Assembly (NCBI GenBank): GCA_025361505.1
Contig: JANYKZ010000052.1
Span: 1-63,402, forward strand
DNA length: 63,402 bases
Source of the DNA: Coriobacteriia bacterium
GTDB taxonomy: Bacteria > Actinomycetota > Coriobacteriia > Anaerosomatales > PALSA-660
Reading direction: 5' to 3'
Shown here: positions 3,093 to 40,283 of the stretch, piece after piece
Position numbering within the stretch: the stretch's first letter is position 1
Layout: each line of letters starts with the position of its first letter
The notes under the pieces: model-generated
The model's database searches: none
What the model was told of the DNA's origin: nothing
Seen by the model: the letters and a program-made list of their open reading frames with translations, nothing else
Position numbers and translations under genes: made by a program

Positions 3093-3180
3093 GACGCCGG
3101 CCGGCGCCATGTCTGGCGCGGGCTCGCGGGGGAGAAGAACCAACCGTCGGGAGTGCTCGAGTCGGAGGGGAGATCCGTCG

Positions 3181-4845
3181 GTGAAGCGAACGCGGCTCGT
3201 CGGTCTTCTGTGCGTCCTGGCGGTCGCCGGGACGCTCCTCGCCCCCTCGACCGTGGCGGGGCGCATCGGTGCGGTCCTTCGCTCTCACACGCCGATACGC
3301 GCGGCCGCGCCCTACATCGGTACCCGGCCCTCTTCGGGTTCGGGCGTAAGCGCCGCCGGGCTCAACATCCAAAGCACGAGCACGAACTGGTCCGGCTACA
3401 CGGTCCAGACGTCGTTCCCGACCGGAGCGAGCGGTTCCGTCAGCGACGTCAAGGCGTCGTGGATCGTCCCCCAGGTGACGGGCGGCACGACGGACGCCTA
3501 CTCGGCCAACTGGATCGGGATCGACGGCTACTCCAGCCCGACGGTCGAGCAGATCGGCACGGAGCAGGACTGGATCTCGGGAGCCCCGTTCTACGCCGCG
3601 TGGTGGGAGATGTATCCCGGTGGGTCGGTCTCGATCGACACGCTCGACATCGGTCCCGGCGACGTCATGAATGCCGAGGTGCGCTGGATCAGCGCCAGCC
3701 AGTTCAGCCTCACACTGATCGACGTGACGAAGGCACAGGGTTTCCAGACGGTGCAGACGATGCCGGGCGGCGCCCAGCGCAGGTCCGCGGAGTGGGTGGT
3801 CGAGGCGCCCGCCGACGCGAGCGGCATCCTTCCCCTCGCCGACATGGGACCCTCGTCGTTCACCTCGTGTGACGTGACGGTCAACGGGGTCGAGGGACCG
3901 ATCGGCGGCGCGGGATGGGCGTTCGACGCCATGACCATGATCTCGGCCAACGGCGGGGCGACCTTGGCCAGGCCGTCGAGCCTGACTGCTGCGGGTACGG
4001 CCTTCGTGGTCACAGAGCCCGGCGGCGTGGACAGGGTCCCCCCCACGACGGTGTCGGACGTGGTGTCCTCGTACGACAACGTGGCGATCGCTCACCTCAC
4101 GGCGGTCGATAATCCCGGTGGCTCCGGGGTGGCCGCTACGCACTATCGGGTCGACGGAGGCGCGACGCAGACGGGCGTCGTCGTCACGATCCCGACCTAC
4201 GGCCCGCACGCGCTCACGTTCTGGTCCGTGGACAACGCGGGCAACGTGGAGACCGCCCACACGACGTCGCTCATGGTGAACGACACCATCCCGCCCACGA
4301 CGGTATCCGACGCCGCGACGACCTACGCGGGCCCGGCGTCGATACGCCTGACGGCCACGGACAATGCGGGCGGCTCGGGCCTCGCCGCCACCTACTACAT
4401 CGTTGACGGCGTCGTCCGTCAGACCTACGTCGGCGCTCCGGTGACGGTCACCTCCGCCGGTTCTCACACGATGACGTTCTGGTCGGTCGACAACGCAGGG
4501 AACGTCGAGGCGACGCGGTCGGCGAGTTTCGCCATCGTGGGTGTCCGGCGGACGACGGCGACACTGCGGGCCAGCGCCGGATCGCTCCTTCGCTACAAGT
4601 ACGTCGGGCTCTACGGCACGCTCTCGGGAGGGGCGGCGGCGGGCGCGGTCGTCCGCTACGAGGTCCGCAAGCCGGGGTCGACGCGCTACGTTCTTGCGGC
4701 GACTCGGGTCGTGAGCGGCTCAGGCGCTTCGTCGTACCGGTACAAGTTGATGGCGCGCGGCACCTACTACTTCCGGCTTCGTTTCCTTGGGAGCCCGGGC
4801 TTTGCCGCGTCGACGTCCCCGGCGGTCAGGGTGGTCTCCCGGTAA
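3181..4845 (+). CDS. Secreted glutamic peptidase (family G1/eqolisin-like) fused to two Ig-like repeats and a C-terminal beta-rich domain
   Basis: ORF 3109..4845. GTG 3181 begins the signal peptide VKRTRLVGLLCVLAVAGTLLAPSTVAG. G1 hallmarks: NWSGY, ANWIGIDGY, VEQIGTE (catalytic Gln position), YAAWWEMYP, SAEWVVEAP (catalytic Glu position). Two repeats follow with the motif ..TTVSD..Y....I.LTA.DN.GGSG.A.T.Y.VDG.......G.H..TFWSVDNAGNVE. Confidence 0.7.
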   Translation: MKRTRLVGLLCVLAVAGTLLAPSTVAGRIGAVLRSHTPIRAAAPYIGTRPSSGSGVSAAGLNIQSTSTNWSGYTVQTSFPTGASGSVSDVKASWIVPQVTGGTTDAYSANWIGIDGYSSPTVEQIGTEQDWISGAPFYAAWWEMYPGGSVSIDTLDIGPGDVMNAEVRWISASQFSLTLIDVTKAQGFQTVQTMPGGAQRRSAEWVVEAPADASGILPLADMGPSSFTSCDVTVNGVEGPIGGAGWAFDAMTMISANGGATLARPSSLTAAGTAFVVTEPGGVDRVPPTTVSDVVSSYDNVAIAHLTAVDNPGGSGVAATHYRVDGGATQTGVVVTIPTYGPHALTFWSVDNAGNVETAHTTSLMVNDTIPPTTVSDAATTYAGPASIRLTATDNAGGSGLAATYYIVDGVVRQTYVGAPVTVTSAGSHTMTFWSVDNAGNVEATRSASFAIVGVRRTTATLRASAGSLLRYKYVGLYGTLSGGAAAGAVVRYEVRKPGSTRYVLAATRVVSGSGASSYRYKLMARGTYYFRLRFLGSPGFAASTSPAVRVVSR

Positions 4846-11804: not shown

Positions 11805-12215
11805 GTGTGTCCAGCGGCCGCGGCCTCAAGTCCGGACGGAGCGAGCATCTTGGCGGAGTCCACGCAGGCGTTTCTGTTCCTTCTGGGCGCCACCGTGGCT
11901 GCACTCGCGTTCGTCGGCCTGGTCTTCGCGGCGAACGCGCTGCTGTCTCCCCGCAACCCGAATCCCTCCAAGCTCGAGCCCTACGAGTGCGGCATGCCGC
12001 CCCAGGGCGACCCCCACGTGCGCTTCCCGCTGCGTTTCGCCGCCATCGCCGTGCTGTTCGTGATCTTCGACGTCGAGTCGGTGCTGCTGTTCTCCGTCGC
12101 CACCCGGATCCGTGGCGACCTCTCCGGCGGGCTGGCTCTCCTCGGCTTCGCCGCGATGCTCGCCTTCGGGCTGCTCTACGCGTGGAAGACGGGAGCGCTG
12201 CAGTGGCGCTCGTAG
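11805..12215 (+). CDS. nuoA: NADH-quinone oxidoreductase subunit A
   Basis: [14 protein letters not shown]...FDVESVLLF matches the conserved NuoA core, with three TM segments. The start is uncertain: GTG 11805 or TTG 11850. Confidence 0.8.
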
Positions 12216-12829
12216 ACTCGCTCACCTCCGCGCTGGAGCGCATCCCCGGCGGCGGCATCATCCTCACGAGCATGGATGCGCTGGCCGACTGGTCCCGCGG
12301 GCAGTCGCTGTGGGCGATGCCCATGGGCACCGCGTGCTGCGCGATGGAGCTCATCGCAGCATCGTTCTCGAAGTTCGACTTCGACCGGCTGGGCACGTTC
12401 CCGCGCCCCGACCCGCGCCACACCGACGTGATGATCATCGCGGGCACGATCACGAAGAAGATGCAGCCCGCGGTCCGGCGTCTCTACGACCAGATGGCCG
12501 AACCCAAGTACGTGATCGCGATGGGCAACTGCGCCGTCAGCGGCGGCATCTTCTACTACGACACCTACTCGGTGGTCCGCGGGGCCGACGCCTTCATGCC
12601 CGTGGACGTCTACATCTCGGGGTGTCCTCCGCGTCCCGAGGCGCTGCAGGACGGCGTCCTGCAGCTGCGGGAGCTGATTCGCACGCGCTCGCTGACGGAC
12701 GCACCCACCTACGAGCGCGACCTGACCCAGCCGGGCCTCGACGCGGCGCGGGCCGGGTCCACCGACGCGGAGACGCTGATCGGCGATGTCCCGGAGCGTC
12801 CGGCTTCGGGCGCGGGGGAGTCTCTGTGA
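12203..12829 (+). CDS. nuoB: NADH-quinone oxidoreductase subunit B (N2 cluster subunit) with ~50-aa C-terminal tail
   Basis: GTG 12203 overlaps the nuoA end. Motifs [18 protein letters not shown] and SGCPPRPE supply the N2-ligand cysteines. It is the tail end of ORF 11807..12829. Confidence 0.9.
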
Positions 12830-13308
12830 CTGCCCGCAGCGGCGAGAGCAGCCTCGAGTACCTCCAGCGCAAGCTGTGCTCCGTCTATCCCGACCTCTGC
12901 CCGCTGTTCTCGATCGAGTTCGCCGACGGCGTGCTGATGGTGCCGCGTTCCGTACTGCACAAGGCGGCCGAGGACCTCAAGGAGATCGGGTTCGAGCGCT
13001 TCGGCTTCGTCACGGCAGTCGACCACGGCGACGACTTCGAACTCGTTTACCGCCTTCAGTCGGGGACGTTCGGCGTCGGCCTGTTCCTCAAGACAGAGGT
13101 CCCGCGCTGCGAAGCGGTCATGGAGTCGCTGACCGACCTGTGGCCCGCGGCGGGCTGGCAGGAGCGCGAGGTCTACGACATGTTCGGCATCGAGTTCCGG
13201 GACCATCCGGACCTCAGGCGGATCCTGCTGCCCGAGGACTGGGTCGGCTACCCCCTGCGCAAGGACTACAAGGACGATTCCGTGATCCCGCGGCCCGACT
13301 ACATCTAG
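12826..13308 (+). CDS. nuoC: NADH-quinone oxidoreductase subunit C
   Basis: GTG 12826 overlaps the nuoB stop (GTGA). [29 protein letters not shown] is the typical NuoC core. Confidence 0.9.
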
Positions 13309-13323
13309 AGAGGAGGTGCGACG

Positions 13324-14469
13324 ATGCCCGTAGAGGTGGAGAGCAAGCGTCCCGTGATCGACGAGCTCGGCCGCGAGGTCGACGAGCTCGTGGTCAACAT
13401 CGGTCCGTCGCACCCCTCCACGCATGGGGTGTGCCGTATCATCGCCCACCTCGACGGCGAGATCGTGGTCAAGGCCGAGCCCGTGATCGGCTACCTTCAC
13501 CGCGGGATCGAGAAGATGGCCGAGAACCGCACCTACCTGCAGGTAGTGCCGTTGACCGACCGGCTCGACTACGTCGGATCCATGTACGCGAACTGGGCGT
13601 ACTGTCGCGCCGTCGAGCGGCTGGCGGACATCCGCGTCCCGGAGCGCGCCGAGTACATCCGCGTGATCGTGTGCGAGCTGCAGCGCATCGCCAGCCACAT
13701 GATGGGCGTGGGCGCCTCGGGCGCCGACACCGGCGCTGCCACCGTCTTCATCTACGCCTTCGAGGTCCGCGAGCGGATCGTCGAACTGTTCGAGGAGCTG
13801 TGCGGAGCCCGGCTCACCTACAACTACGTAAGGCCCGGCGGCGTGTCGGCGGACCTGCCCGACGGCTGGATCGAGCGCTGTCGCGAGGTCGTGCGGTGGG
13901 CTCCCGACCGCCTGCTCGAGCTGGACCGACTGTTCTTCGGGAACTACATCGCCGCTGAGCGGATGAAGGGCATCGGCGTGCTCAGCCAAAGTGACGCGAT
14001 CGCGTGGGGCGCTTCCGGCCCGACCGCCCGCGCATCCGGCGTCACCTTCGACATCCGCAAGAACGACCCGTACTCCGTCTACCCGCGCATCGACTTCCGG
14101 GTGCCGGTGGGAGAGAACGGCGACTGCTTCGACCGCGGGCGCGTGAAGGTGCTCGAGGCGATCGAGTCGTGCCGCATCGTCGACCAGGCGCTCGAGCAGA
14201 TCCAACCCGGCCCGGTCGCGGCGGAGGGGCTGCCGCGCCTGCTGCGCCCGCGCGCCGGCGACGCCTACGACCACATCGAGTCCGCGCGCGGCTCGCTCGG
14301 CGTCTACCTCGTCTCCGACGGCTCGCCGCGGCCCTTCCGCATGCACGTGCGGTCGCCCGCCTTCTGTAACCTGCAGCTGCTCGGGCTGCTCGCCCGCGGC
14401 CACACGGTGAGCGACCTCGTCGTCATCCTCGGCTCCCTGGACCCCGTGTTCGGGGAGGTGGACCGATGA
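13324..14469 (+). CDS. nuoD: NADH-quinone oxidoreductase subunit D
   Basis: 381 aa with GAGGAGGTG RBS. NIGPSHPSTHGV, GYLHRGIEK and a C-terminal LGSLDPVFGEVDR are typical of NuoD and [NiFe]-hydrogenase large-subunit relatives. Confidence 0.95.
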   Translation: MPVEVESKRPVIDELGREVDELVVNIGPSHPSTHGVCRIIAHLDGEIVVKAEPVIGYLHRGIEKMAENRTYLQVVPLTDRLDYVGSMYANWAYCRAVERLADIRVPERAEYIRVIVCELQRIASHMMGVGASGADTGAATVFIYAFEVRERIVELFEELCGARLTYNYVRPGGVSADLPDGWIERCREVVRWAPDRLLELDRLFFGNYIAAERMKGIGVLSQSDAIAWGASGPTARASGVTFDIRKNDPYSVYPRIDFRVPVGENGDCFDRGRVKVLEAIESCRIVDQALEQIQPGPVAAEGLPRLLRPRAGDAYDHIESARGSLGVYLVSDGSPRPFRMHVRSPAFCNLQLLGLLARGHTVSDLVVILGSLDPVFGEVDR

Positions 14470-15422
14470 GTCCGCTGCTGTGGGGAGGGCTCTTCGGGCT
14501 GCTGTCGGGGACCGCGATCGCGCTGGCCGCGCTGTTCGGCGTGTGGTGGGAGCGCAAGGTCTCCGGACGCATGCAGATGCGGTTCGGGCCGCAGCAGGCC
14601 GGCCCCGCGGGCCTTCTGCAGACACTCGCGGACACGATCAAGCTCGTCCTCAAGGAGGATGTGACACCTGCCGCCGCCGACGCCCGGATCTTCCGGATGG
14701 CGCCGCTGCTGGTCTTCGCCCCCGTCGCGTTGTCGCTGCTCGTGGTTCCGCTGGTCACGGGCTGGGCGCCGCTCGATTCCGGCGTGGGAGTCCTGTTGTT
14801 CCTGGCCGTGCCCTCGGTATCGGTCCTGGGCGTGCTGCTCGGCGGCTGGTCGTCCGCGAACACGTACGGCACCCTCGGGGGCCTTCGCGGCGCCGCTCAG
14901 ATGGTCAGCTACGAGATCCCGCGCACGCTGTCCGTGCTGGCGCTCGTCGTCGTCGCAGGCACGATGCGCCCCTCCGCCTTGATGGGCGCCTGGCGTCTGT
15001 GGTGGCTTCCGCTCTTCGCGGTGGCGTTCGTCGTCTACCTGATCTCGTCGATTGCGGAGCTGAACCGAGGGCCGTTCGACCTGCCCGAGGCCGACTCCGA
15101 ACTGGTGGCGGGCTACTTCGTCGACTACACCGGCATCCGATGGGCGATCTTCATGATGGCCGAGTACGGCGGGATGCTCGCCTGCTCCCTGTTCGGCGCG
15201 GCGATGTTCCTCGGCGGGACGAACGGGCTCCCGGGGCTGCTCGGGGCGCTCGTCCTGCTCGTGAAGGCGGTCGCGATCGTGACCGTGATCATCTGGGTCA
15301 AGTGGAGCTTCCCGCGCTTCCGGCAGGACCAGCTCATGCGGCTCGCGTGGAAGGTCCTCACCCCGATCGCGCTCGTGCAGCTCCTTGTGGCGGGGGCGGT
15401 GGCGGTCGTATGGCTGAGGTGA
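14466..15422 (+). CDS. nuoH: NADH-quinone oxidoreductase subunit H
   Basis: ATGA overlap with nuoD. WWERKVSGRMQMRFGP, AELNRGPFDLPEADSELVAGY and MAEYG are conserved NuoH motifs. Polytopic. Confidence 0.95.
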   Translation: MSPLLWGGLFGLLSGTAIALAALFGVWWERKVSGRMQMRFGPQQAGPAGLLQTLADTIKLVLKEDVTPAAADARIFRMAPLLVFAPVALSLLVVPLVTGWAPLDSGVGVLLFLAVPSVSVLGVLLGGWSSANTYGTLGGLRGAAQMVSYEIPRTLSVLALVVVAGTMRPSALMGAWRLWWLPLFAVAFVVYLISSIAELNRGPFDLPEADSELVAGYFVDYTGIRWAIFMMAEYGGMLACSLFGAAMFLGGTNGLPGLLGALVLLVKAVAIVTVIIWVKWSFPRFRQDQLMRLAWKVLTPIALVQLLVAGAVAVVWLR

Positions 15423-17467
15423 GACGACCCGACGCGGACGCCACGTTCATGAACGCCACCGAGCCGGCGAAGACCGGGCTCGACGCGTTCGTGTCGGCGT
15501 GGCGCTCCCTGACCACCGGCCTTGCCATCACCGCGGGCCGTGCGTCGCACAAGCCCACGACCCTGCGCTACCCCTTCGAGAAGCTGTCCATGTCGCCCCG
15601 CTGGAGGGGCGCCCTGCGGCTGCGCGGCGTGCTCGGCCGTGACGACGTGGCGCTGCTCTCCGCCTCGCCGCCGCACCACAACGAGACGATCGCGGGACTG
15701 CTCGCCGTCGACCGTCTGCCCCCGTGCGTAGGAACGTGTCCGGCCAACGTCGACGCGCGCGGCCAGAACTACCTGATCGCCGACGGGCGCGTCGCCGAGG
15801 CCTACGAGCTGGTCCGTGAGCGCAACATCATGCCGGGCGTGCTCGGCCGCATCTGCCATCACCCGTGCGAGGGCGCGTGCACCCGCGCGCGCTACGACCA
15901 GCCGATCGCCATCCGCCCGCTCCACCGCTTCGCGCAGGAGAGCTACGCGGAGGTACGTGCCGAGCGCGTGAAGCCGCTGCCGGTCACTCAGGAGGCGCGC
16001 GTCGCGATCATCGGCTCAGGGCCGTCGGGCCTGTCCGCCGCGCTCGACCTGATGAGCCTCGGCTACGCGGTCTCGATGTTCGAGAAGGACGACAAGCCGG
16101 GCGGCGCCCTCTACTCGGGCGTCCCCGCCTACCGGCTGCCCCGCGAGGTCCTGCACTCCGAGATCGACGATCTCGTGACGATGGGGCTCGACCTGCGCTG
16201 CGGCGTCGAAGTGGGCAGGGACGTCACCCTGCCCGACCTGCGCCGAGACCACGCGGCGGTGCTGATCGCGGCGGGCCTGCAGATCAGCCGCATCCTCCCG
16301 ATCCCGGGCGCCGACGCCGACGGCGTGCGCGGCGCGCTGGAGTTCCTGCGCAAGGCCAACTGGGAGGGCGAGGCGGGCGTGCGTGGCAAGCGCGTACTCG
16401 TGATCGGCGGGGGCAACGTGGCCGTCGACGTCGCCCGCTGCGCGCTGCGCGTCGGCGCCACCGAGGTGCGCATGGCCTCCCTCGAGTCGATGGAGGAGAT
16501 CCCCGCGCACCCGTGGGAGATCGAGGAGGCGCTCGACGAGGGCGTCATCGCCACCTGTTCCGTAGGCCCCGAAGAGGTCGCGGTCGAGGACGGACACGTG
16601 GTCGGCCTTCGCGTGCGGGAGTGCCTCTCGGTGTTCGACGAGACGGGCCGCTTCGCTCCGAAGATGGGGGAGGCGACGCACGTGCTCGAGACCGATGTGG
16701 TCGTGTTCGCCATCGGTCAGGCGAGCGTGCTCGAGGCCGTCGTCGCGGGCACCGACGTCGAGCTCAACGAGCGCGGCAACCTGAAGGCCGACGGGACGCT
16801 GTTCACGACCAGCGGCGCGGGTGTGTTCGCCTGCGGTGAGGTCGTCACGGGCCCGGGCTCGGCAATCGGCTCGATCGCCACCGGTCACGAGGCCGCGCAC
16901 TCTATCCACCGCTTCCTGCAGGGCGTCGACCTGGCGGCCGATCGGACGCTGAGGCCCGTGCCCGTGTTCGAGAAGTACGAGCGCGCGTCGCTCCAGGGTG
17001 TGGAGGAGGAGCGCCTCCGCGCTCCCATGACCATGGAGGATCCGATAGAGCGCGTGAAGGACTTCCGTCCGGTCGAGTCCGGCCTGCTGCACTCGGGGTC
17101 GCAGCATGAGGCGGCGCGCTGTTTGCGGTGCAGCTCCGAGGTCTGCGTGGGCTGCACGTTCTGCGCGCGGACCTGCCCCGACTACTGCATCACGGTCGAG
17201 CGTGTCGACACGCCGGGCGCGCGCTGCGTCACGCGCTACGATCTCGACCTCTCGAAGTGCTGCTTCTGCGGACTGTGCGCGGAGCAGTGCCCGACCAACG
17301 CGCTGACCCATACCGGGCAGTACGAGCTGTCCTTCTACCATCGCGAGCTCACTCTGTTCGACAAGGGCGAGATGCTGCGCGACCCGCTCCCGACGCGCGC
17401 CACGGGCCGTGACGGCATCGAGGCCCCCGCGTGCGACGTCCCGTCGGGGGAGGTCGAGCGCCCATGA
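15410..17467 (+). CDS. nuoI: NuoI (2x[4Fe-4S]) interrupted by a ~470-aa GltD/NfnB-like NAD(P)H:FAD/Fe-S oxidoreductase module (fusion protein, 685 aa)
   Basis: One open frame (part of ORF 14480..17467). ATG 15410 overlaps the nuoH end and the stop overlaps the nuoJ ATG. aa 50-72 TLRYPFEKLSMSPRWRGALRL form the NuoI N-terminus. aa ~100-565 are GltD-like (PPCVGTCP, GRICHHPCEGAC, RVAIIGSGPSGLSAA, GKRVLVIGGGNVAVDVARCA, GVFACGEVVTGPGSAIGSIATGHEAA). aa 571-655 are the NuoI core (CVGCTFCARTCP, CCFCGLCAEQCP, QYELSFYHRELTLFDKGEML). Confidence 0.85.
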   Translation: MAEVRRPDADATFMNATEPAKTGLDAFVSAWRSLTTGLAITAGRASHKPTTLRYPFEKLSMSPRWRGALRLRGVLGRDDVALLSASPPHHNETIAGLLAVDRLPPCVGTCPANVDARGQNYLIADGRVAEAYELVRERNIMPGVLGRICHHPCEGACTRARYDQPIAIRPLHRFAQESYAEVRAERVKPLPVTQEARVAIIGSGPSGLSAALDLMSLGYAVSMFEKDDKPGGALYSGVPAYRLPREVLHSEIDDLVTMGLDLRCGVEVGRDVTLPDLRRDHAAVLIAAGLQISRILPIPGADADGVRGALEFLRKANWEGEAGVRGKRVLVIGGGNVAVDVARCALRVGATEVRMASLESMEEIPAHPWEIEEALDEGVIATCSVGPEEVAVEDGHVVGLRVRECLSVFDETGRFAPKMGEATHVLETDVVVFAIGQASVLEAVVAGTDVELNERGNLKADGTLFTTSGAGVFACGEVVTGPGSAIGSIATGHEAAHSIHRFLQGVDLAADRTLRPVPVFEKYERASLQGVEEERLRAPMTMEDPIERVKDFRPVESGLLHSGSQHEAARCLRCSSEVCVGCTFCARTCPDYCITVERVDTPGARCVTRYDLDLSKCCFCGLCAEQCPTNALTHTGQYELSFYHRELTLFDKGEMLRDPLPTRATGRDGIEAPACDVPSGEVERP

Positions 17468-17952
17468 GCGCGACGCTGCTGTGGTGGGGCCTCGCGGTCC
17501 TGACCGTCGCCGGTGCCGCCGTGGTGCTGCTCACGCGCGAGATGATGCGCATGATCCTCGGCCTCGGCGCGTTCCTGCTGGGCATCGCCGGCCTCTACGC
17601 CTGGCTCGGGTTCGGGCTGCTCGCCGTGGCCGAGCTCTTCGTCTACGTCGGAGGAGTGCTCGTGCTCTTCCTGCTGGCGATCACCGCGATGGGCCGCGAC
17701 GCCGACGCCCGCGCCATCGTTCGCAGATTCGACCTCGGCGCCGCCCTGATCAGCATCGGCCTCGCCGTCGTGCTCGTCGTCGCGCTTCGCGGTCTGCTGC
17801 CCGCGGCGGTCCCGGTCTCCGGCGTCACGGTCGAGAGCACGGCCGACTACCTGCTGGGCGTCTGGCTCCCGCAGTTCGAGATCGCCGGCGTGGTGCTGCT
17901 CGCGGGGCTTGCCGCCGCGCTCGCCATCGTGCAGGGAGGCGATGACGAGTGA
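17464..17952 (+). CDS. nuoJ: NADH-quinone oxidoreductase subunit J
   Basis: ATGA overlap with the preceding gene. 162 aa and five hydrophobic segments. Position and size fit NuoJ (ELFVYVGGVLVLFLL). Confidence 0.85.
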   Translation: MSATLLWWGLAVLTVAGAAVVLLTREMMRMILGLGAFLLGIAGLYAWLGFGLLAVAELFVYVGGVLVLFLLAITAMGRDADARAIVRRFDLGAALISIGLAVVLVVALRGLLPAAVPVSGVTVESTADYLLGVWLPQFEIAGVVLLAGLAAALAIVQGGDDE

Positions 17953-18239
17953 CGACGCTCGTGCTCTCGTGCGCGATCGTGGCAGCCGGTCTCTACGGCG
18001 TGATGACGCGACGCGACCTTGTGGCCGTTCTCGCCTCGGTGGAGGTCATGCTCGGGGGCGCGTCGCTGCTGCTCGCCGCATACGCCGCGGCAGGCACCGC
18101 TCCCGCAGCCGGTCAGGGCTACGCGCTGCTCGTGCTCGCCGTCGGTGCCGCCGGGGCGGCGGTCGGGATCGCGTTGCTGGTCTCCCTGGTCCGCCGTGGC
18201 CGCTCGCGCACCGACCAGATCACGGAGGTGCGCGGGTGA
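17949..18239 (+). CDS. nuoK: NADH-quinone oxidoreductase subunit K
   Basis: 96 aa, three TM segments, GTGA overlap with nuoJ. Contains the conserved membrane glutamate context (LASVEVMLGGASLL). Confidence 0.85.
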   Translation: MTTLVLSCAIVAAGLYGVMTRRDLVAVLASVEVMLGGASLLLAAYAAAGTAPAAGQGYALLVLAVGAAGAAVGIALLVSLVRRGRSRTDQITEVRG

Positions 18240-20044
18240 GCATCCTGACGCACTCCGCCTATCTCGCGGTACTCGTACCGTTGCTGCTCGCCGCCCTCCT
18301 GGCCGTGGGGGTGCGGCTGTGGGGCCGCGGCGCTCCCTGGGTCGCTCTCGCGGGGCCTCTGACGGTGATCGGCATTGGAGTCGCGTCGCTTCGGGCCGGG
18401 GGAGACAGCGCCCGCATCACCTGGATACGCGTCGGGGAGCGCAGCCTGTCGCTCACCTACAACGCGGACGCGCTCGCGGCGGTCATGCTGCTGGTCGTCG
18501 GCGTGGTAGCGGCGTGCGTCATGGTCTTCTCGATCGGCTACATGCACCGCGAGAAGGGCTACGTCCGCTACTACGCGCTGTTGTCGCTGTTCACCGCATC
18601 CATGGCGGGCCTGGTCATCGCGGCGGACCTCGCGACGCTGTTCATCTGCTGGGAACTCGTCGGGGCCTGCTCGTTCCTGCTGATCGGCTTCTGGTACGAC
18701 AAGCCGTCCGCAGCCGACGCGGCACGCAAGGCCTTCATGGTCACGCGCGTCGGCGACGCGGCCATGCTGGTCGGCATGGCCGTCCTGTGGCGGGCCAGCG
18801 GCGGGCTCGAGTTCAGCCTGATCCTCGGCGCGGCCGCACCGTTCGCGCCCGCCGTGGCGACCGCGGCGGCCGTGTGCATCCTGATCGCCGCGGTGGGGAA
18901 GTCGGCCCAGTTCCCGCTCCACATCTGGCTGCCCGAAGCGATGGAGGGCCCCACTCCGGTCTCCGCGCTCATCCACGCCGCGACCATGGTCGCCGCAGGC
19001 GTGTTCCTGATCGCCCGCACCTGGCCGCTGTTCGCGGCGGCTCCCGCGGCGAGGGACCTGGCGCTCGTCCTCGGAACGATCACCGCCCTGGGCGCGGCGA
19101 GCGTCGCGCTCGCGCAGCGCGACATCAAGAAGGTCCTCGCCTGGTCGACGATCAGTCAACTCGGTTTCATGTTCGCCGCCCTGGGCGTCGGCGCATGGCA
19201 GGTGGCGATCTTCCACCTGGTCACCCATGCGGCGTTCAAGGGGCTGCTGTTCCTCACCGCCGGATCGGTGATCCACGGGAGCGGGACGCAGGACCTTCGC
19301 GAGATGGGCGGGCTCGCCGGACGTATGCCGGTCACCGCCGCATGCTGGATCGCCGGCGCCGTGTCGCTCGCGGGCATTCCGCCCGCGGCCGGCTTCTTCA
19401 GCAAGGACCTCGTCGTCTCGTCGGTGCTGCATTCGGCACCGTGGGCCGGCGTCGCGCTGCTGGCCGCGAGCGCGCTGACCGCGGCCTACGCCGCCCGCGC
19501 GACCCGGTTGGCGTTCTTCGGAGCATCCCGGAGCGTCACGCCGGCGCACGAGGCGCCGTGGATCATGCTCGGGCCGCTCGTGGTGCTCGCAGCGGCCGCT
19601 CTCGTCCTGGGCGTCGCTGGCGGCCCGCTCGCCTCCGCTCTGGGGACCACCTTCGAGCCGCTCTCCGTCACGATCGCGGGCACCGCGATCGTGCTGGCGC
19701 TGACGGGCACGGTGCTCGGATGGCGCAGCGCGCGCCCGCAGGCGGCTTGGACGGTGGCGACCGAGGGCTGGCGCACATTCATGCGCGCCGCGGCGTCCGG
19801 CTGGGGTGTCGACGCGTTCGTCAGCCGGTTCGTGGTGACGCCGGTCACGGCGACCGCGCGGGCGACGGACGCGATGGGCGACCGTCTCGCCATCGACGGG
19901 CTCGCCGAAGGCGTGGCGGCCCTCGCGTCGCGTGTCGGGGCGCTGTTGACCGAGATCCAGTCCGGCGACGGTCAGTGGTATGCGGGGCTGATGGCGACCG
20001 GCGTCGTGCTCCTCGTGGCCGCGGCCGTCTGGCTGGTGAGGTGA
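18236..20044 (+). CDS. nuoL: NADH-quinone oxidoreductase subunit L
   Basis: GTG 18236 overlaps the nuoK stop. 602 aa antiporter-like subunit (WELVGACSFLLIGFWY, KSAQFPLHIWLPEAMEGPTPVSALIHAATMV) with a C-terminal extension consistent with the lateral helix. Confidence 0.9.
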   Translation: MSILTHSAYLAVLVPLLLAALLAVGVRLWGRGAPWVALAGPLTVIGIGVASLRAGGDSARITWIRVGERSLSLTYNADALAAVMLLVVGVVAACVMVFSIGYMHREKGYVRYYALLSLFTASMAGLVIAADLATLFICWELVGACSFLLIGFWYDKPSAADAARKAFMVTRVGDAAMLVGMAVLWRASGGLEFSLILGAAAPFAPAVATAAAVCILIAAVGKSAQFPLHIWLPEAMEGPTPVSALIHAATMVAAGVFLIARTWPLFAAAPAARDLALVLGTITALGAASVALAQRDIKKVLAWSTISQLGFMFAALGVGAWQVAIFHLVTHAAFKGLLFLTAGSVIHGSGTQDLREMGGLAGRMPVTAACWIAGAVSLAGIPPAAGFFSKDLVVSSVLHSAPWAGVALLAASALTAAYAARATRLAFFGASRSVTPAHEAPWIMLGPLVVLAAAALVLGVAGGPLASALGTTFEPLSVTIAGTAIVLALTGTVLGWRSARPQAAWTVATEGWRTFMRAAASGWGVDAFVSRFVVTPVTATARATDAMGDRLAIDGLAEGVAALASRVGALLTEIQSGDGQWYAGLMATGVVLLVAAAVWLVR

Positions 20045-20048: not shown

Positions 20049-21491
20049 ATGACCCTGACACTCCTGGCCCTCATCCCGCTCGTGGGGGCGCTCGTCACGT
20101 GGCTCGTGGGGCGTTCGCGACCGTCCGCCGCGCGTGTGGTCGCGCTGACCGTGGCGCTGGCGCAGCTCGTCTACACCGGGGCGGTCGCCGGACGCATGCT
20201 CGGTCTGGCGCCCGCGGCGTTGAGCGGCGGTGTGGGAGGTGTCCGCACGAGCTTCTGGCTCCTCCGCATCGACGGGCTGTCGCTGCCCCTGGTGGCCCTC
20301 ACGTCGCTCCTGGGCGTGGTCGCCGTGCTCGCTTCGTGGCGCATCGACAAGCGCCCCGGGGTCCACTTCGCCCTGCTGCTCGCATTGCAGGGCGCGGTGA
20401 CGATAGTGTTCCTTGCGGACAACCTCGTGCTGTTCTACGCGGCGTGGGAGGCCGTGCTCATCCCGATGTTCTTCCTGATCGGGATCTGGGGGCACGAAGG
20501 CCGTCGTCACGCTGCCATGAAGTTCTTCATCTACACCTTCGCCGGGAGCGCCCTGATGCTCGTCGCGCTGCTGATCGTCGGCTTCAGCACGGGCGAATTC
20601 CGGATGTCGGCGCTGGACGCCGGCGTACTCGACCCGTCGCTGCGGGCGCTGGTGTTCTGGCTGCTGGTCGCGGGTTTCGCGGTGAAGATCCCCGTCGTCC
20701 CGTTCCACACGTGGCTTCCCGACGCGCACGTCGAGGCACCCACCGGGGGTTCGATCATGCTGGCGGGCGTGCTGCTCAAGATGGGGGGCTACGGCCTGCT
20801 TCGGCTGGCGCTCCCGCTCACTCCCGAGGTCGCGCGTGCCGCGGCGCCGCTCTTCGCCGTCCTCGGGATCGTCGGGATCGTCTACGGCGCGGTGCTGGCA
20901 TTGGCGCAGACCGACCTGAAGCGGCTCGTGGCGTACTCGTCCGTCGCGCACATGGGGTTCGTCGTGCTGGCGATCGCGACCGGCTCGCCGCTGGCGCTGA
21001 GCGCGGCGATGCTCGTGATGGTCGCGCACGGGCTGACCAGCGCACTGCTGTTCCTGCTCGTGGGGCAGCTCTACGACCGGACGCACACCCGTGCGCTCGC
21101 ACGCCTCGGCGGCATGTTGGCGACGATACCGGTGTGGGGCGCGCTCTTCGTGTTCGCGTCGCTGGCGAGCCTCGGGCTCCCCGGACTCGCCGGCTTCCCC
21201 GGCGAACTGGTGGCCTTCCTCGAAGGCTTCGGCCCCTGGGGCTGGTGGATGGTCGCGGTCGCCGTGGGCGTCGTGCTCGCGGGCGCCTACAGCCTTCGCG
21301 CCGTCCGCGAGGTGGCCCAGGGCCCCGGTCTCGAGGAGTGGAGCGGCATCCGTGACCTGAGGGTGACGGAGATCGCCGCCGCCGCACCCCTCGCGGTGCT
21401 GATCGTCCTCATGGGCGCGTGGCCGGGACTCGTGAGCGGCGTGATGGCTCCGGTGGCCCGCGTCCTGGCCGCGGCGTTGGGGAGGGGATAG
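20049..21491 (+). CDS. nuoM: NADH-quinone oxidoreductase subunit M
   Basis: 480 aa antiporter-like subunit (FYAAWEAVLIPMFFLIGIWG, VPFHTWLPDAHVEAPTGGS, DLKRLVAYSSVAHMG). Confidence 0.9.
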   Translation: MTLTLLALIPLVGALVTWLVGRSRPSAARVVALTVALAQLVYTGAVAGRMLGLAPAALSGGVGGVRTSFWLLRIDGLSLPLVALTSLLGVVAVLASWRIDKRPGVHFALLLALQGAVTIVFLADNLVLFYAAWEAVLIPMFFLIGIWGHEGRRHAAMKFFIYTFAGSALMLVALLIVGFSTGEFRMSALDAGVLDPSLRALVFWLLVAGFAVKIPVVPFHTWLPDAHVEAPTGGSIMLAGVLLKMGGYGLLRLALPLTPEVARAAAPLFAVLGIVGIVYGAVLALAQTDLKRLVAYSSVAHMGFVVLAIATGSPLALSAAMLVMVAHGLTSALLFLLVGQLYDRTHTRALARLGGMLATIPVWGALFVFASLASLGLPGLAGFPGELVAFLEGFGPWGWWMVAVAVGVVLAGAYSLRAVREVAQGPGLEEWSGIRDLRVTEIAAAAPLAVLIVLMGAWPGLVSGVMAPVARVLAAALGRG

Positions 21492-21496
21492 CGCTG

Positions 21497-22912
21497 ATGA
21501 GCTTCCTTCCCTACGCACCGTTCGCGTTCGGGGTGGCCGCCGCCGTCGTGGCGATGGTCTTCGACGCGTGGGGAGACCGCAGGTCCGCGGTGGCCGGTGC
21601 GGTGGCGCTTCTCGCCGCCGGCGCGGCCGCGGCGGCCTGGACCGGCACGGTGTCGGGCCTGCAGGGCGAGGCGGTGCGCAGCGGCGGGTCGATGTCCCTC
21701 GCGCCCGCGGCGTGCCTGGCGCTGGGTGCCCTCGTCGTCGCGGGGTGCGCCCGTTCCCTGTCGACGGACCGCCGGGGATCGCGCATCGTCGCGCTCAGCG
21801 CACTGACCGCCGCGTCGTCCGCGCTCGTGGCCGCCGCCGGCGACGTCGGCGTGCTCTTCCTCGCGGTCGAGATGCTCGCCCTTTGCGGCTACGGGCTGGT
21901 GGCCCTCGGTGGCACCGACCGGGCGCGCGAGGCGGCGATGAAGTGGTTCGTACAGGGATCCGTGGCGACCGTCGTGTTCGTCATCGGGACCGCTGTGCTC
22001 ATGGGGCGCACGGGCGGCTCGCTTCGCTACTCGGCTATCGCCGCGCTCGCGGCGGCCTCGCCCGACGTGCCGGTGGCGGTCGGCTTCGTGCTGCTGATCG
22101 CCGCGCTGGCCTTCAAGCTGGGCGCGTTCCCGATGCACAGCTGGATGCCCGACGCCTACGAGACGGCGGCTCCCGCGGCGGCCGCCGTCATGGCGTCCGC
22201 GGGCAAGGTCGGCCCGCTGGCGGCCGCGGTGTGGCTGGCCGTCGCCGTGACGGGTTCGGCGGGCAGTCGCGTGGTCCGCGTCGTCGCCGCGATCGCGCTC
22301 TGCTCGATCGTCTTCGGGAACCTCGCGGCACTGCGTCAGCGCTCGCTGGCCCGCATGCTGGCGTACTCCGGCATCGCGCAGGTCGGCTACGCGCTCGTCG
22401 GCGTGCCTCTGGGATCCCGGTCCTCGAGCGTCCTCGTCTTCGCCGTCCTCTACGGAGTGACGGCCGCCGCATCCTTCGTCCTCGTCGAGGCGTTGCACCG
22501 CACGGACGCCTCGTGGGACGGCACGATCGGGGGCCTCGCGGGCCTATCGCGCCGCAGCCCGGCGCTCGCCGCGTCGCTCGCCGTGATCATGCTGTCGCTC
22601 ACGGGCATCCCGCTCACCGCCGGCTTCTGGGGCAAGTTCCTCGTGTTCGCGTACGCATCGGTCGGGGGATACCGCTGGCTGGCGATCGTGGCCGTGCTGG
22701 GTTCCGTCGTGTCCTTCGGGTACTACGGGGCGGCGATCCGTGCGGCGTTCATCGACGACGAGGCCACGGGCGAGGCACCTGACGAGCCTGTCACCGACGG
22801 CGTGCGGCTGGTGACGGGAGCGGTCGTGACGCTCTCCGCGGTCATCGTCCTCGCGGGAGTGGTGCCGCTCGCCACGGGGCTGGAGCCGGCGCTGCGGATG
22901 CTGATCCGCTAG
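21497..22912 (+). CDS. nuoN: NADH-quinone oxidoreductase subunit N
   Basis: Within ORF 21419..22912, ATG 21497. 471 aa antiporter-like subunit (FKLGAFPMHSWMPDAYETAAP, LARMLAYSGIAQVGY). Confidence 0.9.
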   Translation: MSFLPYAPFAFGVAAAVVAMVFDAWGDRRSAVAGAVALLAAGAAAAAWTGTVSGLQGEAVRSGGSMSLAPAACLALGALVVAGCARSLSTDRRGSRIVALSALTAASSALVAAAGDVGVLFLAVEMLALCGYGLVALGGTDRAREAAMKWFVQGSVATVVFVIGTAVLMGRTGGSLRYSAIAALAAASPDVPVAVGFVLLIAALAFKLGAFPMHSWMPDAYETAAPAAAAVMASAGKVGPLAAAVWLAVAVTGSAGSRVVRVVAAIALCSIVFGNLAALRQRSLARMLAYSGIAQVGYALVGVPLGSRSSSVLVFAVLYGVTAAASFVLVEALHRTDASWDGTIGGLAGLSRRSPALAASLAVIMLSLTGIPLTAGFWGKFLVFAYASVGGYRWLAIVAVLGSVVSFGYYGAAIRAAFIDDEATGEAPDEPVTDGVRLVTGAVVTLSAVIVLAGVVPLATGLEPALRMLIR

Positions 22913-26411: not shown

Positions 26412-29054
26412 GTGGCCGCGCGTGACGGCATGACGATCGTCGCGGGGCACGTGAACCCGGACTTCGACGCGTACGGATCGATGGTCGCCGCCACCAAGCT
26501 CTATCCCGGCGCGCGGGCCGTCTGGGCCGGCACTCAGAACGCCAACGTACGCGAGTTCCATGCGCTGCACGGCGAGTTCCTCGCGTTCACCGACCTCAAG
26601 GGCTTCGACCGGAGGCCGGTGACGCGCCTGGTGATGGTCGACACGCGTGAGGCGGCGCGCCTCGGCGAACTCGCCCCGCTGGCCGACGACGAGCGCGTCG
26701 AGCTGGTCATCTACGACCATCACCCGCGAACGGAACTCGACGTCGCGCGAGGCGACGACCGCAGCCGCCCCGTGGGCGCTACCACGTCGATCCTCGTGCA
26801 CGAGGTACGCGAGCACGAACTCGCGCTCACCCCGCTGGATGCCTCCGCGATGTTGCTCGGTATCCACGAGGACACCGGTTCGCTGACCTACCCGGGAGCG
26901 ACCGCGTACGACGCCGACGCGATCGCCTTCCTCATGGCGCAGGGCGCCGACCTCGAGGTGGTCGAGCGCTTCCTGAACCGTTCGCTCACCGTCGAGCAGC
27001 GAGCACTGCTCGAGGAGCTCACCGCCTCCGTCGAGGTATGGCAGGTCCACGGTCGGCCGATCGCGGTCGCGGTGGCCTCCGCGCCCGGCTACGTCGACAG
27101 CGCGGGTCTGGTCACCCACCACCTCGTCGAGGACCTGGGTCACCGCGTCGCCGTTGCCGTCGTGTCGATGCCGGAGCGGGTGCAGCTCGTGGGACGCAGC
27201 CGATTGCGCGACATCGACATCGCGGCCGTGCTCTCCCATCTCGGCGGCGGGGGACACCCGCAGGCGGCGTCCGCGGCGCTGCGGGGGGCCGAGGTCGGGC
27301 AGGTGCTCGCCGACCTGCGCGACGCCCTCGAGCTCGAGGTGCCCGCGCAGCTGACCGCGGGCGACATCGCGACGACGCCCGTTCGCACGATCACGGAGGC
27401 CGACACGATGGACGAGGCATCCGAGGTCATGGGGAGATGGGGTCACGGGCTGCTGCCCGTGATGGCGCAGGGCCGGATGCGGGGCTACGTGACGAGGCGC
27501 GACGTCGACAAGGCGGTCCGGCACGGCCTCGGCCACGCGCCGGTGACCGGATTCATGACGCGCTCGCCCGTGACGGTCGCCCCAGACGCCGATCTCGACA
27601 CGCTCGAGCATCTGATGAGCGCGGACGCCGTACCGGCGGTGTTCGTGGCGAGCGGCGGGATCCTGTGGGGACTGGTCACGCACGCCGACCTGCTGCGCGC
27701 CGAGCACGGATCCTCCTACCTGGCCACCCGCGCTGCGCCCGCCCGGCAGGAAGCGGCCGAGCGGTTCCGCGAGTCCTTCGACACGCTCCTCCCGCCCGAG
27801 GTGCGGGACACGGTCCGCGAGATCGGTGCCGTCGCGCAGGAGGAGGGCGTGCGCGCCTTCGTCGTCGGCGGGTTCGTGCGCGACATGCTGCTGAGGCGCC
27901 GCAACCTCGACGTCGACATCGTGGTCGAGGGGGACGGCATCGCCTTCGCGCAGCGCGTGGCGCAGCGCCTGGGCGGGCACGTGCGGGCCCACGCGCGCTT
28001 CGGCACGGCCGTCGTCGTGCTGGAGCGGGGGCTGCACGTCGACGTGACCACGGCGCGCACCGAGTACTACACGCGACCCGGAGCGCTGCCGACCGTGGAG
28101 CGCTCGAGCCTGCGCCGCGACCTCCTGCGCCGCGACTTCTCGATCAACGCGATGGCGGCGGAGATCGACCCCTCGGAGTTCGGCTCGATCGCCGACCCGT
28201 TCGGCGGGCTCGCCGACCTGCGCGACGGCGTCGTGCGCGTGCTGCACCCGCTGTCGTTCATCGAGGATCCGACGCGCGTGATGCGCGCCGCGCGTTTCGA
28301 GGGGCGGTTCGCCTTCTCAATGGACGAAGGCACCGAGGGCCTGGCGCGGCGGGCCGTCGCGATGGGACTGCTACAGGAGATCTCCGGGGCGCGGCTTCGG
28401 GAAGAGCTGCTGGCGATCCTGGAGGAGGACGACCCGGCACCGCCGCTGGAGCGCCTCGAGGCGCTCGGGGCCCTTCGCGCGGTGCTGCCGACCGGTGTGG
28501 CGCCCCACGAGGCCGTGGCGGACGTACGCGCGGTGTTGGAGTCGCTCGAGGAGATGCCGCGGCGGGCGGGACGACCGCCGCGGCGGGTCACGTCGCTGCT
28601 CGTCGCGCTGGCCGGCCGCGGCGCTCCCGCGAGCGTCGAGCGCTGGGTCGAGCGCCTGCGGGTGGGCCACGACGCGGGGACGTCCGCGCAGCAGGCCGCC
28701 AGCCGCGTCCCCGCGCTGACGCGGGCGCTCGACCGCGTCGCACCTCTGCGCGATTCGCGCCTGCACGCGCTGCTCGACCCGCTCGCTACCGAGACGCTGG
28801 TGGACCTGCGTGCGGTCGGCTCCGCGCGGGTGCGGGAGCGGGTGGACCGCTTCGCGGGGACGCTATCGCACGTTCGGCTCGAGGTGTCGGGCGACGACCT
28901 GATCGCGATGGGTGCGGAGCCGTCTGCGGCCTTCTCCGATATACTGTCCCGCATCCGGGCCCGCCGTCTCGACGGCGCGGTCGCCGGCCGCAAGGCCGAG
29001 CTCGACGAACTCCGCAGGCTGGCGCTACGCGCCGGACTGGTACCGCGCCACTAG
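26412..29054 (+). CDS. Multidomain DHH/DHHA1 phosphoesterase - CBS pair - class II nucleotidyltransferase (CCA-adding/poly(A) polymerase family)
   Basis: 880 aa with GTG after GGGGGAGG. DHH motifs (GHVNPDFDAYGS, DTRE, IYDHH, GIHEDTGSLTY), DHHA1 motif GGGGHPQAASA, two CBS-like repeats, then GGFVRDMLLRRRNLDVDIVVEG ... RRDFSINAMA (PolyA_pol head). Confidence 0.8.
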   Translation: MAARDGMTIVAGHVNPDFDAYGSMVAATKLYPGARAVWAGTQNANVREFHALHGEFLAFTDLKGFDRRPVTRLVMVDTREAARLGELAPLADDERVELVIYDHHPRTELDVARGDDRSRPVGATTSILVHEVREHELALTPLDASAMLLGIHEDTGSLTYPGATAYDADAIAFLMAQGADLEVVERFLNRSLTVEQRALLEELTASVEVWQVHGRPIAVAVASAPGYVDSAGLVTHHLVEDLGHRVAVAVVSMPERVQLVGRSRLRDIDIAAVLSHLGGGGHPQAASAALRGAEVGQVLADLRDALELEVPAQLTAGDIATTPVRTITEADTMDEASEVMGRWGHGLLPVMAQGRMRGYVTRRDVDKAVRHGLGHAPVTGFMTRSPVTVAPDADLDTLEHLMSADAVPAVFVASGGILWGLVTHADLLRAEHGSSYLATRAAPARQEAAERFRESFDTLLPPEVRDTVREIGAVAQEEGVRAFVVGGFVRDMLLRRRNLDVDIVVEGDGIAFAQRVAQRLGGHVRAHARFGTAVVVLERGLHVDVTTARTEYYTRPGALPTVERSSLRRDLLRRDFSINAMAAEIDPSEFGSIADPFGGLADLRDGVVRVLHPLSFIEDPTRVMRAARFEGRFAFSMDEGTEGLARRAVAMGLLQEISGARLREELLAILEEDDPAPPLERLEALGALRAVLPTGVAPHEAVADVRAVLESLEEMPRRAGRPPRRVTSLLVALAGRGAPASVERWVERLRVGHDAGTSAQQAASRVPALTRALDRVAPLRDSRLHALLDPLATETLVDLRAVGSARVRERVDRFAGTLSHVRLEVSGDDLIAMGAEPSAAFSDILSRIRARRLDGAVAGRKAELDELRRLALRAGLVPRH

Positions 29055-33825: not shown

Positions 33826-33935
33826 GGGGTGGGCCTCCATCGACGTGGTCCGACGTGTCACTTCAGAGGTTTCCCCCATCGGGTACGGTAGAATCCATCC
33901 CGCACACCCGAGTCCGTACGAAAGGCCGCCTCAGC

Positions 33936-39240: not shown

Positions 39241-39316
39241 GACGTCTTCGCTCTTCGTGCGGGGCGGCTTACGTGGGCCGAGGACAGCCCGGACGACGAC
39301 AGGGACGGAACCAAAG

Positions 39317-40270: not shown

Positions 40271-40283
40271 GGAAGGACCGACC

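Follow-up and report, generated by a model that had tools for sequence, protein, structure and literature searches.

A GltD/NfnB-type flavoprotein module inserted into the NuoI subunit of a NuoEFG-less complex I: a probable built-in electron input in anaerobic Actinomycetota

The DNA analysed here (hereafter the window) comprises 63,402 nucleotides of contig JANYKZ010000052.1 (assembly GCA_025361505.1), from a Coriobacteriia bacterium of the Anaerosomatales. It contains a complex I (nuo) operon in which the nuoI position is occupied by a nuoI::gltD-like fusion gene (15410..17467, forward strand) coding for 685 amino acids (aa). The translation of this single frame has no internal stops; its ATG at 15410 overlaps the nuoH stop codon (15420-15422) by 13 nt, and its TGA (17465-17467) overlaps the nuoJ ATG at 17464 (ATGA). 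Despite the high G+C content of the window (69.7%), at which long spurious open reading frames (ORFs) are common, this frame is a genuine gene, as indicated by its intactness, its domain matches and the existence of more than 120 full-length homologous clusters.

The operon, which lies entirely on the forward strand, has the order nuoA, B, C, D, H, fusion, J, K, L, M, N. It opens with nuoA (11805..12215; Pfam Oxidored_q4, E = 1.2e-27), followed by nuoB (12206..12829, start approximate; identified by its N2 ligands and by tblastn identities of 66-75% to nuoB of homologous operons), nuoC (12826..13308, with a GTG start overlapping the nuoB stop; Pfam Complex1_30kDa, E = 5.6e-37), nuoD (13324..14469, of the quinone-reducing type; Pfam Complex1_49kDa, and PDB Nqo4 2fug_4 with E = 4.9e-99) and nuoH (14466..15422; Pfam NADHdh, E = 3.9e-100). 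Downstream of the fusion gene we find nuoJ (17464..17952, with the ATG at 17464 and an alternative GTG at 17431; Pfam Oxidored_q3), nuoK (17949..18239; Pfam Oxidored_q2) and, after nuoK, three antiporter-like subunits: nuoL (18236..20044, start approximate within the ORF frame 17909-20044; tblastn identities of 53-57% to nuoL of homologous operons), nuoM (20049..21491; Pfam Proton_antipo_M, E = 2.6e-74) and nuoN (21419..22912 as ORF limits, likely start ATG 21497; Pfam Proton_antipo_M, E = 4.7e-47). The operon has no nuoE/F/G-like gene, and none was seen among the remaining ORFs scanned in the 63-kb window.

By their residues, the subunits around the quinone site look like those of a quinone-reducing enzyme. 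NuoB carries all four N2 cysteines (CCAME...GNC...GCPP, GCPPRPE), and in NuoD, whose best PDB match is Nqo4, H34 and Y83 align with His38 and Tyr87 of Thermus thermophilus Nqo4 (STHG, R(L/M)DY). The alignment shows no NiFe cysteines in NuoD, the RLDY and DPVFGEVDR segments being without Cys pairs. Judged from these positions, NuoD is of the quinone-reducing type and the Q module is intact. A complex of the Mbx/Mbh type was also considered and is ruled out by the NuoD residues. Two further observations concern the same subunits and the membrane arm. NuoB has a C-terminal tail of ~45 residues, rich in Ala, Gly and Pro, beyond its conserved CPP motif (window 12700-12829). In two homologous loci with fusion-type nuo operons (L084, 12876-21276, and L087, 3228-11649), nuoK is followed by five Proton_antipo_M genes, as against three in the window, which is an extended membrane arm combined with a NuoI::GltD subunit.

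Both ends of the fusion protein are NuoI. The N-terminal half (15479..15625) consists of an amphipathic helix (residues 24-45) and the segment TLRYPFEK...RWRGALRL (51-72). A profile built from the ~55 N-terminal residues of 12 diverse members of the fusion family, compared with all PDB sequences, matched 34 chains (best E = 3.4e-13), all of them NuoI/NDUFS8/NdhI or MbhN/MbsN; the match stops at residue 68 of mature bovine TYKY, and T51, Y54, P55, R66 and G67 are invariant across 12 clusters. The C-terminal half (17132..17383; TIGR01971 and PDB matches) is the ferredoxin core of NuoI, C579xxC582xxC585xxxC589P...C617xxC620xxC623xxxC627P (clusters N6a/N6b), followed by the C-terminal segment QYELSFYHRELTLFDKGEML. 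In a PDB search, residues 570-658 match TYKY 68-157 with E ~2e-21 (bovine, ovine and mouse NDUFS8), and all 8 Cys of the core are invariant in the family alignments. Since the two halves abut at TYKY residue 68, the insertion into NuoI is a clean one: the inserted stretch has ~497 residues (73-569), no NuoI sequence is lost, and the insertion falls nine residues before the first NuoI cluster motif.

The fusion therefore shares with NuoI/Nqo9/NDUFS8 (TYKY) the N-terminal amphipathic helix, the TxxYPxEK...RxRG motif, both CxxCxxCxxxCP motifs with NuoI-type spacing, the C-terminal segment and a gene position between nuoH and nuoJ, but differs from them in its length (685 aa versus ~160-200 aa), in the residues inserted exactly at TYKY 68, and in its two extra cysteines and four extra cluster-binding segments. 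Standard family models reflect this mixed composition. The NCBIfam NuoI model TIGR01971 matches residues 575-654 in two stretches and scores 89.6 bits where its cut-off is 113; the PRK05888 models all score under their cut-off. With Pfam, the 685-aa protein shows Fer4_20 at residues 104-181 (E = 7.5e-17, spanning profile positions 30-110 only), Pyr_redox_2 at residues 197-492 (E = 2.6e-22) and the dicluster ferredoxin Fer4_7 at residues 579-631, while the GltD/NfnB-type models of NCBIfam cover residues 98-633. The highest-scoring of these, PRK12771 (GltD-like plus ferredoxin), reaches 432.8 bits, below its curated cut-off of 516, and its match is limited to the same residues 98-633. The AlphaFold2 model of the fusion (81 sequences) has a mean pLDDT of 87.8 and a pTM of 0.84, with high confidence across the insert, both junctions and the NuoI core.

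A preliminary description of this DNA had placed one uninterrupted 685-aa frame at the nuoI position, overlapping nuoH and nuoJ, in an operon without NuoEFG, with a NuoI-type N-terminus at residues ~50-72 and the NuoI two-cluster core at ~571-655. The translation and the coordinates agree with that frame, neither the operon nor the ORFs scanned elsewhere in the window include NuoEFG, the N-terminal profile hits NuoI-family chains exclusively, and TIGR01971 together with NDUFS8 places the core over ~570-658. The domain check proposed there also came out as anticipated, with Fer4_20 and Pyr_redox_2 in mid-protein and NuoI at both ends according to Pfam, NCBIfam and the N-terminal profile.

The possibility that a gltD-like gene and a nuoI gene were joined artificially, whether in a chimeric contig or through a frameshift in sequencing, is favoured solely by the ease with which long ORFs arise in high-G+C DNA, and its probability is negligible. 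Matches over the whole protein at 65-87% identity number more than 120 clusters (at 90% identity; 650-716 aa) and stem from assemblies of NCBI, JGI, ENA and Logan; the named ones belong to Coriobacteriia or Actinomycetota metagenome-assembled genomes (MAGs). In an exhaustive HMMER search of 1.84 billion representatives, the full architecture was retrieved in ~12 deeper clusters (at 50% identity; 34-52% identical). Labels on the more distant full-length members include Candidatus Aquicultor, Candidatus Subteraquimicrobiales and 'Actinobacteria', with a few 'Anaerolineae' or 'Firmicutes'. The insert is flanked by NuoI sequence on both sides, and the operon slot is identical across the 16 homologous loci examined. 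Because independent assemblies carry the same protein in the same slot, misassembly and frameshift are ruled out; in place of the read mapping suggested in the preliminary description, it is these assemblies that exclude both a chimeric join and a frameshift.

The loci in question (L001-L008, L020, L083-L088 and one JGI contig) represent at least 7 sequence clades and were taken in addition to the window. The matches listed by a scan of genome contigs are mostly non-Nuo GltD-ferredoxin genes, and that scan is no gauge of taxonomic spread. Together with the window, the fusion occupies the nuoI slot in 17 of 17 loci. Upstream lies nuoH in 15 of the 16 homologous loci (the L087 contig begins just before the fusion gene), and nuoJ follows in 14 (the L007 contig stops within the fusion gene, and nuoJ/nuoK were not detected in L020). 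Pfam gene tables cover 9 loci, and none of them shows nuoEFG; the tblastn screen of L003-L008 and L020 included no NuoEFG query. The neighbourhood expected at the outset, between nuoH and nuoJ and without nuoEFG, is thus seen as the nuoI slot in 16 of 16 homologous loci and as the absence of nuoEFG in those 9.

The sequences that come next in the search, after the full-architecture clusters, match the query from residue ~101 to residue ~632; they lack the NuoI N-terminus and C-terminal segment and have an MvhD/FlpD-like tail instead. Four proteins (P0129, P0130, P0132 and P0133) show the same permuted GltD body (see below) and dicluster ferredoxin with an MvhD/FlpD-like end and no NuoI N-terminus, and such tailed non-Nuo relatives may be the donor lineage of the insert. 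We also considered whether the fusion could be a PRK12771-type GltD-ferredoxin with a NuoI-like C-terminus. This is ruled out by the true NuoI N-terminus ahead of the insert, by the meeting of both halves at one TYKY residue, and by the non-Nuo relatives themselves, in which the NuoI N-terminus and C-terminal segment are missing and an MvhD-like domain stands in their place.

The inserted stretch contains a module of the GltD/NfnB type, with FAD and two [4Fe-4S] clusters, which extends over about residues 101-574 of the fusion. Its Fe-S part (15710..15967; Pfam Fer4_20, aligned to NfnB 4ylf_B and StnC 8oh5_C) is Fer4_20-like and holds the ligands C106, C110, C149, C153, C157 and H172. Next come the FAD and NAD(P)H Rossmann domains (15986..16924; Pyr_redox_2 with invariant glycines), with GSGPSG at 202-207, GGGNVA at 333-338, SLES at 356-359 and GVFACGE at 471-477. 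The best PDB sequence matches of the fusion are the NfnABC subunit 9bov_A (E = 4e-87) and StnC of StnABC, 8oh5_C (E = 5e-82), followed by 9n5u_A and then by NfnB 4ylf_B (E = 6.5e-73), NfnI-L, GltD and DPD. Foldseek searches with the AlphaFold2 model lead to the same group (9bov_A, 8oh5_C and 9n5u_A, with a top E of ~1e-48, then NfnB, GltD and DPD).

In the HMMER alignments, residues 105-505 of the fusion correspond to residues 46-461 of NfnB 4ylf_B and, separately, residues 537-580 (RAPMTMEDPIERVKDFRPVESG...EAARCLRCSSEVCV) correspond to residues 5-48 of NfnB and 9-56 of NfnI-L 5jca_L. The GltD module is, by this alignment, circularly permuted: the EAxRCLxC segment, which is N-terminal in NfnB and GltD, follows the flavoprotein body in the fusion. 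The displaced segment (residues 537-574, 17018..17131; RAPM...ERVKDF..VESG...EAARC571LRC574) is homologous to NfnB 5-42 in the HMMER alignment. Residues 101-628 of the fusion are colinear with residues 99-624 of 8oh5_C and 9bov_A, so that the permuted order is common to StnC and 9BOV.

The cluster ligands of the fusion were mapped by transferring published assignments through the alignment (PMC7596348, PMC10482914). In NfnB the distal cluster is bound by C39, C42, C47 and C100, and the proximal one by C51, C90, C96 and E117 (PMC7596348). The equivalents of C47, C51, C90, C96 and C100 are found at fusion residues 106-157, and those of C39 and C42 at 571 and 574. Accordingly mapped, the distal [4Fe-4S] cluster would be bound by C106, C157, C571 and C574, and the flavin-proximal one by C110, C149 and C153 together with His172, which sits at the position of NfnB Glu117 and StnC Lys170, the latter a demonstrated cluster ligand (PMC10482914). 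Counting the NuoI core, there are 15 Cys plus His172, 16 ligands in total, exactly those of four [4Fe-4S] clusters. In alignments that go down to 34-39% identity, each of the 16 is either invariant or conserved to at least 90% (among 81 sequences C574 shows no variation, and C571 is conserved to at least 90%). The preliminary description had located all the GltD/NfnB hallmarks between the two NuoI halves. All the ligands and both folds are present, but the family's N-terminal ligand order (C39, C42, C47, C51...C90, C96, C100) is not kept, C571 and C574, two of the module's seven Cys ligands, coming after the body.

The fusion and the NfnB-type proteins (NfnB/NfnI-L, GltD, SudA and the N-terminal module of DPD) have in common the Fer4_20 plus Pyr_redox_2 fold, FAD, the NAD(P)H site and two [4Fe-4S] clusters, with identities of 28-36% and, to NfnB, a target-normalised TM-score of 0.78-0.79 (rmsd 2.6-2.8 Å). 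They differ in that their first ~45 residues (EAxRCLxC) come after the flavoprotein body in the fusion, in that the fusion has no NfnA or GltB partner, and in the exchange of the Glu ligand for His and of YRR for SLE. Regarding the partner, the scanned window ORFs include no GltB or NfnA/SudB gene, and the Pfam gene tables of 9 homologous loci show none either.

The spacer between the RCxxC pair and the first Cys of the NuoI core has 4 residues in 160 of 160 proteins. From this invariant spacer we infer that the exit cluster of the flavoprotein would be held right beside a NuoI cluster; in ferredoxins, a similar x3 spacing separates the ligands of two clusters ~12 Å apart. A separate observation concerns the motif E-x-x-R-C-(I/L)-x-C, which stands at the start of canonical NuoI cluster motif 1 (TYKY). 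The same motif also opens NfnB/GltD, and the junction in the fusion lies exactly there (RC571LRC574-SSEV-C579, window 17120-17146), so that recombination may have taken place at this shared motif.

Concerning the nucleotide, the elements of both dinucleotide folds are as well conserved as the cluster ligands. G202, G204, G207 and PGG of the FAD fold, G333-G335 and D340 of the second dinucleotide fold, and likewise the GE/GD motif and Y241-R242-L243-P244, are maintained to the same alignment depth. In NfnB, Y310-R311-R312 bind the 2'-phosphate of NADPH, and it has been shown kinetically for DsrL that enzymes with YRR use NADP(H), whereas DsrL-1, with S/T-L/V..-E/F.., uses NAD(H) (PMC7596348). 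In the fusion, S356-L-E-S aligns with Y-R-R-T of NfnB, StnC and 9BOV. Given SLE in place of YRR, together with the DsrL precedent, the predicted donor is NADH in the clade of the window and NADPH in the minority that keeps YRR. A NADPH-specific enzyme of the GltD kind is ruled out for the window by the absence of the YRR motif. The electron input from NAD(P)H through the GltD module, as originally proposed, is refined to NADH, rather than NADPH, as the predicted donor in this clade.

Among 150 proteins with the full architecture, ~100 pair (S/C)LE with His172, and ~12 retain YRR, mostly with Lys as the proximal ligand. Across these members the proximal ligand and the nucleotide motif covary (His with (S/C)LE, Lys with YRR; window 15923-15925 and 16475-16486), with a single His plus YRR exception, P0127. 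This covariation suggests two functional subtypes.

The loss of YRR in most members could also be taken to mean that the insert no longer binds pyridine nucleotide, and that its role is to dock another donor (ferredoxin, a hydrogenase, an Hdr-like partner) or relay its electrons, or is a purely structural one in the place of NuoG. This would agree with the general opinion that 11-subunit complexes use ferredoxin or assorted partners (PMC3144371, PMC11238625, PMC9686372). We nevertheless find it quite unlikely, because both dinucleotide folds (G202/G204/G207, PGG, G333-G335, D340, GE/GD) are invariant at 34-39% identity; moreover, the loss of YRR in DsrL-1 goes with NAD(H) use, and not with a loss of binding (PMC7596348).

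We consider it fairly probable, on the strength of the sequence and model comparisons, that the NuoI::GltD insert is a built-in N-module for an 11-subunit complex I without NuoEFG, and it probably lets the complex I of this bacterium and of many related anaerobic Actinomycetota take electrons from NADH on its own. In the path that we propose, NADH (NADPH in the minority keeping YRR) would give a hydride to FAD, from which electrons would pass singly to the proximal [4Fe-4S] cluster (C110, C149, C153, H172) and then to the distal one (C106, C157, C571, C574), tethered to the NuoI core by the 4-residue spacer. N6a/N6b would be next in line, then N2 in NuoB, and then the quinone site of NuoD/NuoH, and this flow would drive proton pumping by NuoL/M/N. 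FAD and the two clusters of the insert would in this way stand in for the N-module of NuoEFG, which has FMN and five or six clusters, the outcome being a self-sufficient 11-gene NADH:quinone oxidoreductase. The donor, direction, acceptor and cluster distances of this path are inferred. A precedent exists in StnC, a NuoG-like subunit that also contains the permuted GltD module as an insert; structure and mutagenesis identify this module as a non-bifurcating, nucleotide-oxidising input, with NADPH as the source and a linear path FAD-C7-C6-C5... (PMC10482914). With this precedent, the conservation of ligands and folds, and the synteny, the built-in electron input suggested in the preliminary description gains support in silico. 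In addition, cultured OPB41 relatives, whether or not they carry the fusion, lack nuoEFG genome-wide (PMC9686372).

Several points weigh against a built-in N-module. No respiratory quinones were detected in two cultured Anaerosomatales (PMC9686372), which makes the acceptor uncertain in this lineage. The scan for nuoEFG and for a second nuoI is confined to the 63-kb window. Among non-Nuo paralogues, the nearest have MvhD-like domains, and domains of this kind typify bifurcating complexes. Finally, these organisms are anaerobes that oxidise H2 or formate, so that the physiological flow could be the reverse one, towards NAD+ reduction.

This last point leads to an alternative in which the same enzyme works backwards, with the proton-motive force and quinol (from a membrane-bound uptake hydrogenase or formate dehydrogenase) reducing NAD(P)+ at the FAD, so as to supply reductant to biosynthesis or to the Wood-Ljungdahl pathway of lithotrophic anaerobes. 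Cultured relatives do live on H2 or formate, with a group 1 [NiFe] hydrogenase/cytochrome b and without complexes II and III (PMC9686372), modules of the GltD/DsrL type run both ways in vitro (PMC7596348), and the gltD-like subunit of Mbx-like complexes was read by Degli Esposti (2015) as a site of NAD(P)+ reduction (PMC4758237). The sequence, however, fixes no direction; an SLE (NADH-type) site and a His-ligated proximal cluster are not suggestive of a dedicated NADPH producer, and the complex I-type enzymes of anaerobes studied so far mainly make menaquinol (PMC11238625). On balance, we regard reverse operation as unlikely, albeit plausible in lithotrophs growing on H2 or formate.

The MvhD-like domains bear on another alternative, that the NfnB-like FAD bifurcates or confurcates in a Fix/Etf-like manner, so that of the two electrons from NAD(P)H one would reach quinone through the Fe-S chain while ferredoxin would take up the second, or the process would run backwards. 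Bifurcation is known for the L-FAD of NfnB, to which the module is homologous, R242 (equivalent to NfnB R201 and StnC R239) is invariant, and it is to MvhD-like domains that the nearest non-Nuo paralogues are fused. Yet bifurcation has been lost in StnC (PMC10482914), which is the nearest relative of solved structure that shares the permuted module, and in the fusion there is a single Fe-S path out of the FAD. Because the operons examined encode no NfnA-like or other partner for a second branch, and because the proximal cluster has His or Lys where NfnB has Glu, we hold bifurcation to be very improbable. If true, it would mean that one membrane enzyme couples NADH, ferredoxin and the quinone pool to proton translocation; we know of no description of such an enzyme.

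Returning to the insert as a built-in N-module, it is likely that an N-module of independent evolutionary origin, made of FAD and four clusters in NuoI, is at work in several anaerobic lineages that branch deeply within the Actinomycetota. If so, the question of the electron donor of the 11-subunit complex I, open since at least 2011, would be answered for these Actinomycetota lineages. With the donor module encoded within the enzyme, a directly testable prediction follows, namely an NADH:quinone oxidoreductase that depends on FAD and has no more than five clusters in its chain. Evolution would here have coupled pyridine-nucleotide oxidation to the complex I pump a second time and independently, and the enzyme would offer a minimal system in which to study this coupling. 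The present identification corrects the annotation of the fusion proteins, which carry database names such as 'FAD-dependent oxidoreductase', '4Fe-4S ferredoxin' and 'glutamate synthase beta subunit-like'; because these names mislead, metabolic reconstructions of OPB41/Coriobacteriia, Aquicultor and subsurface Actinomycetota deny the use of NADH (e.g. PMC9686372).

Elsewhere in the window there are a riboflavin biosynthesis operon (ribD, ribE, ribBA, ribH; 58584-62142), followed by an Rrf2-family regulator (62399-62995), and a cobalamin nucleotide-loop assembly cluster (cobU, cobT, cobS and a cobC-like phosphatase; 42469-45661), preceded by a periplasmic-binding-protein/FecCD transporter (39257-41309). 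An 880-aa fusion (26412-29054) joins DHH/DHHA1 domains, a CBS pair and poly(A)-polymerase/CCA-adding head domains. A gene for a bacterial archaeo-eukaryotic release-factor-like (baeRF) protein of families 3/6/7 (32605-33879, reverse strand) is adjoined, divergently, by a class I (Trp/Tyr-type) tRNA synthetase gene (Pfam tRNA-synt_1b). A 578-aa peptidase A4-family protein (3109-4845) and a BspA-type leucine-rich-repeat protein (37219-38610, reverse strand) are probably secreted or located at the surface.

Comparison with known systems shows which features of the fusion have precedents. The closest are StnC of the Sporomusa ovata StnABC complex and the related NfnABC subunit (8OH5_C, 9BOV_A, 9N5U_A), in which a permuted GltD module likewise lies inside a complex-I-related Fe-S subunit. 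Their host, however, is a soluble NuoG-like protein accompanied by a HydBC/NuoEF-like bifurcating module, whereas the host of the fusion is the NuoI of a membrane-bound, proton-pumping-type complex without NuoEFG; StnC also combines YRR (NADPH) with Lys170 on the proximal cluster, where the fusion has SLE and His172. DsrL of the Dsr systems resembles the fusion in its GltD/NfnB-like body, linker and C-terminal 2x[4Fe-4S] ferredoxin domain, but it is soluble and has DsrAB as its partner, its N-terminal Fe-S domain is unpermuted and its ferredoxin domain is not NuoI.

A gltD-like flavoprotein at the NuoI position of a complex-I-related membrane complex has been stated in print, as far as we found, solely by Degli Esposti (2015), who reported that NuoI is replaced by a gltD-related flavoprotein in Mbx-like operons of Thermotoga and of Magnetococcus and some proteobacteria (PMC4758237). 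Those operons are of the Mrp/Mbx type, with NuoD homologues that keep vestigial NiFe cysteines, and their complexes, read as NAD(P)+-reducing, are uncharacterised. The window operon, in contrast, is of the true Nuo type, with the His/Tyr pair of the quinone site. As for 11-subunit complexes, surveys found no common partner (PMC3144371, PMC11238625), and the donor question 'remains' in 2024 (PMC11238625). For the cultured OPB41 isolates, the authors described nuoNMLKJIHDCBA without NuoEFG and proposed ferredoxin as the donor, with no mention of a flavoprotein domain (PMC9686372). The preliminary description knew of no characterised complex I with the present architecture and, consistently, the literature searched contains no description of it for a Nuo-type complex I. 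Other electron inputs of 11-subunit complex I include FpoF (for F420H2), NdhS and ferredoxin in NDH-1, and NuoX/Y with flavodoxin in Campylobacter. With these the fusion shares conserved Q and P modules served by an exchangeable donor module, but there the donor modules are separate subunits or soluble carriers, while here a FAD-using domain is inserted in a core subunit. A complex I with an alternative electron input is, therefore, a known theme, of which the insertion of a domain into a core subunit is a new form.

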